NCBI RefSeq assembly: GCF_003334335.1
Contig: NZ_QOWQ01000005.1
Strand: one strand, 5' to 3'
DNA length: 64,000 nucleotides
From: Escherichia coli
GTDB taxonomy: Bacteria > Pseudomonadota > Gammaproteobacteria > Enterobacterales > Enterobacteriaceae
Position 1 is the stretch's first letter. Every line of letters starts with the position of its first letter. Shown in pieces: positions 1 through 410 of this stretch. The notes beneath the pieces were generated by a model that saw only the letters and a list, made by a program, of their open reading frames with translations, was not told the DNA's origin and did no database searches. Both the position numbers and the translations under genes were made by a program.

Positions 1-62
1 TTTTTCGTCTTGCGACGTTAAGAATCCGTATCTTCGAGTGCCCACACAGATTGTCTGATAAA

Positions 63-75
63 TTGTTAAAGAGCA
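63..75 (-). promoter_or_regulatory. rrn leader boxA antitermination element (TGCTCTTTAACAA on minus strand)
   Basis: Plus strand reads ttgttaaagagca, the reverse complement of the rrn boxA consensus; it lies downstream of the P2 promoter on the minus strand. Confidence 0.8.
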
Positions 76-107
76 GTGCCGCTTCGCTTTTTCTCAGCGG
101 CGCGGGG

Positions 108-145
108 TGTGCATAATACGCCTTCCCGCTACAGAGTCAAGCATT
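108..145 (-). promoter_or_regulatory. rrsC: rRNA operon promoter P2 (-35 TTGACT, -10 TATTAT)
   Basis: Minus strand reads TTGACTctgtagcgggaaggcgTATTATgcacacc. Plus-strand coordinates: -35 at 135-140, -10 at 113-118. The 16S gene starts just beyond the window edge. Confidence 0.85.
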
Positions 146-224
146 TCTTTGCTTTTCTCTGTTGAGATTCTCAGGAGAACCCCGCTGACCCGGCGGCGTG
201 TTTGCCGTTGTTCCGTGTCAGTGG

Positions 225-290
225 TGGCGCATTATAGGGAGTTATTCCGGCCTGACAAGAGGAAATTTAAAATAATTTTCTGACCGCGCA
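225..290 (-). promoter_or_regulatory. rrsC: rRNA operon promoter P1 (-35 TTGTCA, -10 TATAAT, GC-rich discriminator) with A/T-rich UP element
   Basis: Minus strand reads cTTGTCAggccggaataactcccTATAATgcgccacc. Plus-strand coordinates: -35 at 253-258, -10 at 231-236. The A/T-rich tract at 259-290 is upstream on the minus strand. Confidence 0.85.
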
Positions 291-410
291 TTTTTTCAGC
301 AAAAGCCCCGTTAATGTGCCATAAAACAAGCAATTTGCCGTTTTTGCAACCGTAATCACACTTCCTGGTGGCATACTAAGGAGGAATAAAAAGAAAAAGG
401 AAGATAAGTA

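Follow-up and report, generated by a model that had tools for sequence, protein, structure and literature searches.

The DNA analyzed here, a 64,000-nucleotide (64-kb) stretch of the Escherichia coli chromosome that we call the window, opens within an rRNA operon. The minus strand of its first 300 bases is almost certainly the control region and 5′ leader of rrnC, with the 16S rRNA gene starting 70 bp past the left edge. This is a K-12-type rrnC P1–P2 promoter and leader, which belongs to the most intensively studied family of bacterial promoters, and its identification here is already known, textbook biology. An earlier note, based on the letters of the window, had read an rrn operon leader with tandem P1 and P2 promoters and a boxA element, divergent from yieP. 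This reading was right, and each element that it named was located on the minus strand (table 1).

Table 1. Features of the rrnC control region and leader, its flanks, and the differences from K-12, in window coordinates
Feature	Position	Strand	Details
16S RNase III stem, 5′ strand	20–79	Minus	Complementary to the spacer that follows 16S
boxC	41–48	Minus	TGTGTGGG
boxA	63–75	Minus	TGCTCTTTAACAA; NusB/NusE (S10) loading site, rRNA antitermination
boxB-like hairpin	78–101	Minus	Arms GCCGCT ... AGCGGC; follows the P2 start closely
Mosaic tract	85–167	Minus	Ten differences from K-12 rrnC, all matching K-12 rrnG
rrnC P2	105–140	Minus	TTGACT 140–135; 16-bp spacer; TATTAT 118–113; presumed start ~C105
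rrnC P1 core	222–258	Minus	TTGTCA 258–253; 16-bp spacer; TATAAT 236–231; discriminator GCGCCACC 230–223; putative start A222
UP element	260–281	Minus	AGAAAATTATTTTAAATTTCCT; −59 to −38 from the P1 start; 22-mer identical to the rrnB P1 UP element
Predicted Fis site I	286–300		GCTGAAAAAATGCGC; centre −71 from the P1 start; score 12/13
Weaker Fis candidate	305–319		−90; score 11; consensus scan
Predicted Fis site II	317–331		GCTTGTTTTATGGCA; centre −102, as rrnB site II; score 11/13
Weaker Fis candidate	337–351		−122; score 10; consensus scan
yieP promoter and 5′ UTR	369–410	Plus	TG 369–370; −10 CATACT 372–377; start G384; 27-nt UTR; ATG 411
yieP	411–1103	Plus	FadR/GntR-family transcription factor, divergent from rrnC
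hsrA	1126–2553	Plus	Then rbsR and rbsK; flanks as in K-12
Isolated substitutions vs. K-12	1252, 3962, 4886, 11682, 12761, 15859, 20280, 20823, 30583, 31829, 34519, 43818, 45368, 52871		
Nonsynonymous substitutions vs. K-12			hsrA R43S, rbsB I192T, viaA Q209H, pstS T124N, pstC P164S, cbrB T139P

Assignment of the leader to rrnC

To assign the operon, we aligned the window with the DNA upstream of each of the seven K-12 rrn operons. Between about −67 and about +58 from the P1 start, the window is base-for-base identical to K-12 rrnA, rrnB, and rrnC, and between boxA and the 16S start the leader hardly varies among all seven operons. Beyond about −67 on the upstream side, the operons diverge completely, and there the window matches rrnC only, unlike the other six. 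The genes yieP, hsrA, and rbs flank the leader, and the operon layout beyond the edge is that of rrnC; our identification of the operon as rrnC follows from these flanking genes and this layout.

The layout is seen in close relatives. Positions 1–1200 are 100% identical to E. coli strain SLK172; the identity extends through 1–1251, and 14 positions differ within 1–7700. The match ends at position 7700 of the SLK172 locus, and the annotated 16S gene begins at 7770 with AAATTGAAGAGTTTGATCATGGCTCAG. The leader is followed there by 16S, tRNA-Glu, 23S, 5S, tRNA-Asp, tRNA-Trp, and hdfR, which is the published organization of the rrnC operon (PMC5179076). The full 64-kb window is also colinear with K-12 MG1655 3941738–3877738 (99.963% identity), in which rrsC (b3756) starts at 3941808, 70 bp beyond the equivalent of window base 1. 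The same offset was found in five further rrnC loci from diverse strains. The earlier note had expected the 16S gene roughly 100 bp beyond the left edge and had proposed a leftward search for its 5′ end. The gene is present in SLK172, where its 5′ end reads AAATTGAAGAGTTTGATCATGGCTCAG, in K-12, and in the five diverse strains; its distance had been overestimated, being 70 bp (69 bases in between) in all seven rrnC loci inspected and hence inside the limit of about 300 bp that the note had set for finding it.

Because the window stops before the 16S gene, we infer the adjacency of this gene in the source genome from these relatives. A query made of yieP and the leader gave an uninterrupted match in 5401 of the 5426 complete E. 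coli genomes. None of the collected genomes was 100% identical over 1–25000, the closest over these 25 kb being K-12 strains (99.9%).

K-12 rrnC, upstream of rrsC, is the same locus and shares P1, the UP element, the P2 hexamers, boxA, and boxC; it is identical to the window from yieP to position 168 and from position 84 to the edge, with ten differences in 85–167. The rrnB P1–P2 region is identical from about −67 to about +58, UP element included, and again from the P2 −35 hexamer through the leader. It differs in the variant of the P1–P2 spacer that it carries and is unrelated upstream of about −67, where the window leads to yieP and rrnB to murI. Between position 185 and the edge, the K-12 rrnG leader and the window do not differ, and this stretch contains the variable P1–P2 spacer. 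The rrnG leader differs by a G, where the window has an A, at position 186 and at many positions upstream of the P1 −35 hexamer; past about −70, on its clpB side, no relationship is left.

A mosaic tract of rrnG type in the P1–P2 spacer

Alignment of the window with K-12 gave 24 differing columns, of which 14 are isolated substitutions scattered over 64 kb and ten are concentrated in positions 85–167. Given a background of about 2 differences per 10 kb, only 0.02 would be expected in these 83 bp; the tract is therefore due to recombination and not to point mutation. The differences are located 41–63 bp upstream of the P2 start, at one base of the P2 spacer (position 122), and at one base of the boxB loop (position 85). 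At the last two, the minus (rrn) strand has a G in the window versus an A in K-12 rrnC. The two −35 hexamers are separated by 118 bp in the window compared with 120 bp in K-12 rrnC, a distance shorter by 2 bp. At position 186, the window keeps the A of rrnA, rrnB, and rrnC, where rrnG has a G, so the tract stops before this position. Judged by this pattern, the tract is a gene-conversion-like mosaic derived from a sister-operon type.

With a threshold of at least 99% match in the rrnC context, the window allele was found in 174 of 5426 complete genomes (∼3%), the K-12 rrnC allele being found in 1553. The rrnC operons of O157:H7, clone D i14, S5, and CY598 carry a spacer of the rrnA/B/C type. 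In strain P15-385, rrnC also carries an rrnG-type spacer, with boundaries different from those in the window, which suggests recurrent local conversion.

The tract might have been acquired by allelic recombination with the rrnC of another strain, for instance an SLK172-like donor, and not from the rrnG of the same genome. We regard this origin as possible but somewhat less likely. The identity of SLK172 rrnC to the window through 1–1251 and the occurrence of the allele in an rrnC context in those roughly 174 genomes speak for such an import. Against it, K-12 rrnG is identical across 85–167, so that a donor is present in the same type of genome; the tract ends before position 186, precisely where rrnG differs; and the differently bounded tract of P15-385 points to conversion occurring locally and repeatedly. 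Conversion from the strain's own rrnG is the somewhat likelier of the two origins. Gene conversion is a well-known cause of concerted evolution among rrn operons, and the mosaic thus represents a variant allele and no new phenomenon.

The rrnG-type spacer also bears on the assignment of the operon itself. A genuine leader could have been detached from its 16S gene by a rearrangement or deletion at the edge, or could belong to another rrn operon of the source genome; the spacer is of rrnG type and not of rrnC type, the 16S gene lies outside the window, and the collected genomes do not include the exact source. Such a scenario is nevertheless highly improbable, as it is opposed by the identity to K-12 rrnC, unlike the other six operons, of the sequence upstream of about −67, by yieP, hsrA, and rbs flanks arranged exactly as in K-12, and by the constant 16S offset in seven of seven inspected rrnC loci.

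As the DNA replaced 41–63 bp upstream of the P2 start is where an UP element would be positioned, the tract could confer an rrnG-like P2 strength or regulation on this rrnC operon.

Promoters, predicted Fis sites, and leader RNA of rrnC

The earlier note had described P1 as TTGTCA and TATAAT separated by 16 bp, with a GC-rich discriminator, and P2 as TTGACT/TATTAT about 120 bp downstream. A consensus scan recovered both on the minus strand, P1 with a score of 11/12 at 258–231 and P2 with 10/12, 118 bp downstream of P1. The P1 core is identical in alignment to those of K-12 rrnA, rrnB, rrnC, and rrnG and has the hexamers, spacer, and discriminator of an rrnB P1-type promoter. Its start is placed at about A222 by identity to rrnB P1. 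The P2 hexamers do not vary among the seven K-12 operons, and we take the P2 start to be near C105 by homology to rrnB P2. For all seven rrn operons, the arrangement of P1 and P2 has been described and Fis sites have been proposed (PMC4696680).

Could these hexamers be chance matches in intergenic DNA? With a loose threshold (at least 9/12), positions 1–1500 contain 2 promoter-like sites versus 1.7 in shuffled sequences, so not an enrichment, but only four sites score at least 10/12 on both strands of the whole 64 kb (128 kb), two of which are the tandem P1 and P2, boxA is unique in the window, and the stretch is identical to the experimentally characterized rrnB and rrnC P1–P2 promoters of K-12, which already refutes an explanation that we consider practically inconceivable.

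The A/T-rich UP element proposed next to P1 was identified as AGAAAATTATTTTAAATTTCCT at 281–260. UP elements are docking sites for the C-terminal domains of the RNA polymerase alpha subunits, and this one has 86% A+T, compared with 49% for the whole window (51% G+C). In rrnB P1, the UP element, which extends from −59 to −38, has an effect of more than 30-fold (bioRxiv 10.1101/2020.02.05.936344).

For Fis, the earlier note had suggested mapping sites in 260–400. We scanned the region with the degenerate Fis consensus GNNYRWWWWWYRNNC. The best matches are 286–300 and 317–331, and they stand as predicted sites only, since the motif is degenerate and the number of matches does not exceed that in shuffled sequences; enrichment was thus not obtained. 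As a control, the same scan of K-12 rrnB ranked highest its three footprinted sites, which are centred at −71, −102, and −143. The predicted centres at −71 and −102 in the window coincide with rrnB sites I and II, respectively, and the predicted site I is invariant in six rrnC loci. At −143, the position of rrnB site III, scanning of the upstream region revealed no Fis-like 15-mer scoring at least 10/13; in the window this position lies inside the yieP core promoter. Hirvonen et al. reportedly obtained Fis footprints in 2001 for the P1 promoters of all seven rrn operons. Each rrn promoter has been proposed to carry three to five Fis sites, and gel shifts with rrnC agreed with Hirvonen et al. 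2001 (PMC4696680).

Downstream of P2, the leader has the rrn antiterminator layout, comprising the hairpin, boxA with its UGCUCUUUA core (followed by ACAA), and boxC. The boxA element announced in the earlier note was recovered as TGCTCTTTAACAA at 75–63 on the minus strand; it is the sole match with at most one mismatch in 64 kb, for 0.10 expected. By folding, the 45-nt RNA extending from the P2 start through boxA and including the boxB hairpin has a free energy of −12.3 kcal/mol with the hairpin arms paired. boxC was read directly and does not vary among the seven K-12 rrn leaders or across six further rrnC loci. Window positions 78–59 correspond to the "rrn cac-boxA-spacer" oligonucleotide CACugcucuuuaacaauuua, and the order boxB-boxA-boxC is that described for rrn leaders, in which boxB and boxC are dispensable for antitermination (PMC2724277). 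The nut sites of phage lambda are the same kind of Nus-loading RNA signal with a related boxA core; the rrn signal differs by its order boxB-boxA-boxC, by a boxA that is the consensus UGCUCUUUA, and by the absence of an N protein (PMC2724277).

The leader is also one strand of a long duplex. Cofolding with the 16S trailer, taken from SLK172, resulted in 50 intermolecular pairs between window positions 79–20 and positions 9317–9374 of that locus (L001), with a duplex energy of −74.5 kcal/mol versus −34.5 ± 3.9 kcal/mol for shuffled trailers. Leader positions 79–20 and the 16S trailer thus make up the stalk at which RNase III processes the 16S precursor. The classical RNase III cut at −115 from mature 16S would correspond to about window position 46, inside the paired region.

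No Rfam family matched positions 1–450 at gathering thresholds. A permissive scan gave only a sub-threshold, full-length alignment of RF02849 (Ysr197, Yersinia sRNA 197) to 303–53 on the minus strand (85.8 bits, E = 7e-21). We did not retain the window as a member of this family, whose gathering score is 167. The match begins upstream of the P1 start, which suggests that the family was built on a Yersinia rrn promoter and leader.

Apart from the predicted Fis sites, the positions and identities of these elements, together with the pairing of the leader with the 16S trailer, are shown here; the remaining mechanism is drawn from studies of rrnB and other rrn operons. By analogy, sigma-70 RNA polymerase would initiate at P1 (A222) while its alpha C-terminal domains contact the UP element at 281–260, and Fis, occupying sites near −71 and −102, would add to P1 activation. 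The 16-bp spacer, the imperfect −35 hexamer, and the G+C-rich discriminator would lead to a short-lived open complex, and through this short life P1 would be controlled by ppGpp/DksA and by the concentration of the initiating NTP, with growth rate. We expect such control here from the identity in sequence to rrnB P1. P2, 118 bp downstream, would provide a less regulated, basal level of rRNA. Once transcribed, boxA (75–63) would recruit NusB-S10 and, with NusA, NusG, and further factors, would yield a fast, Rho-resistant polymerase. The leader (79–20) would then pair with the spacer following 16S, allowing RNase III to cleave the stem and free the 16S precursor. This logic of UP element, Fis, P1–P2, boxA, and RNase III is among the best characterized in bacteria; the present data therefore bring nothing new on mechanism.

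The divergent yieP promoter and the rest of the window

As stated in the earlier note, yieP is divergent from the leader, with an ORF at 411–1103 on the plus strand. Its transcription start was determined by 5′ RACE 27 nt before the ATG (PMC11340327), which corresponds to G384 in the window. This places the yieP core promoter at about 345–384, that is, −123 to −162 from the P1 start. It has no convincing −35 hexamer, and the consensus scan of 1–1500 returned no plus-strand promoter. An extended −10 without a convincing −35 fits the reported positive autoregulation by YieP. Two further ORFs, at 107–283 (plus strand) and 356–643 (minus strand), are antisense to the leader and to yieP, respectively; we treated them as mechanical artefacts and not as genes.

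According to the earlier note, the yieP promoter must share the region 300–410 with the upstream activating sites of P1. The two regions indeed abut, but the sharing does not amount to coincidence: the yieP core promoter adjoins the stronger Fis-like sites, and only the weak candidate at 337–351 touches the yieP −35 region. The control regions of yieP and rrnC P1 thus abut and probably interdigitate, and the statement of the earlier note is borne out in part.

A cluster of weak matches (9–10/15) to two published YieP sites, from the sdaC promoter, was noticed at 314–335; its centre precedes the yieP start by about 60 bp, and it overlaps the predicted Fis site II. The search over 260–410 gave six matches of at least 9/15 versus 1.9 expected; in this A+T-rich region they are too weak to call. 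YieP, which is reported to activate its own promoter, may bind around 314–335, over the predicted Fis site II of rrnC P1. Both proposals, that the rrnG-type tract alters rrnC P2 output and that YieP binds the DNA upstream of rrnC P1, appear unlikely.

Several other features of the window were recorded. The gene named hsrA in K-12 is labeled elsewhere by PGAP as "mdtD: multidrug transporter subunit MdtD"; its 3′ end overlaps by 35 bp that of the convergent rbsR (2519–3511, minus strand). The only other sigma-70 site scoring 11/12 in the window (TTGAAA, 16 bp, TATAAT) is at 19179–19206 on the plus strand, upstream of atpI, where the promoter of the atp operon is expected. Rfam reported, at gathering level, STnc410 (26297–26454, minus strand, 188 bits) and AsdA, the antisense RNA of the dnaA mRNA (58519–58599, minus strand, 102 bits). 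No tRNA gene is present within the window.

The fourteen isolated substitutions relative to K-12 comprise six transitions and eight transversions. Twelve are in coding DNA, six of them nonsynonymous. The substitution at 4886 is common to the window and SLK172; three were tested, at 1252, 15859, and 30583, and no complete genome has any of them. At 15859 (K-12 3925879), the substitution changes CTGGACCGT into CTGGATCGT and creates an extra GATC (Dam/SeqA) site in the annotated oriC. The exact 80-mer carrying this variant occurred in 0 of 5424 matching complete genomes, and the substitution may be either a mutation private to this strain or an error in the sequence.

The locus serves chiefly as an annotation anchor: with it, the window is recognized as origin-proximal chromosomal DNA that begins at rrnC, passes oriC, and reaches gyrB. 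The motif reading made from the sequence proved accurate. If YieP does bind at 314–335, a metabolic regulator and the activation machinery of an rRNA promoter would compete or cooperate on shared DNA. The mosaic tract illustrates, on a small scale and cleanly, how concerted evolution can extend into rRNA promoter DNA; it would be consequential only if P2 output is not the same with the two spacer alleles.
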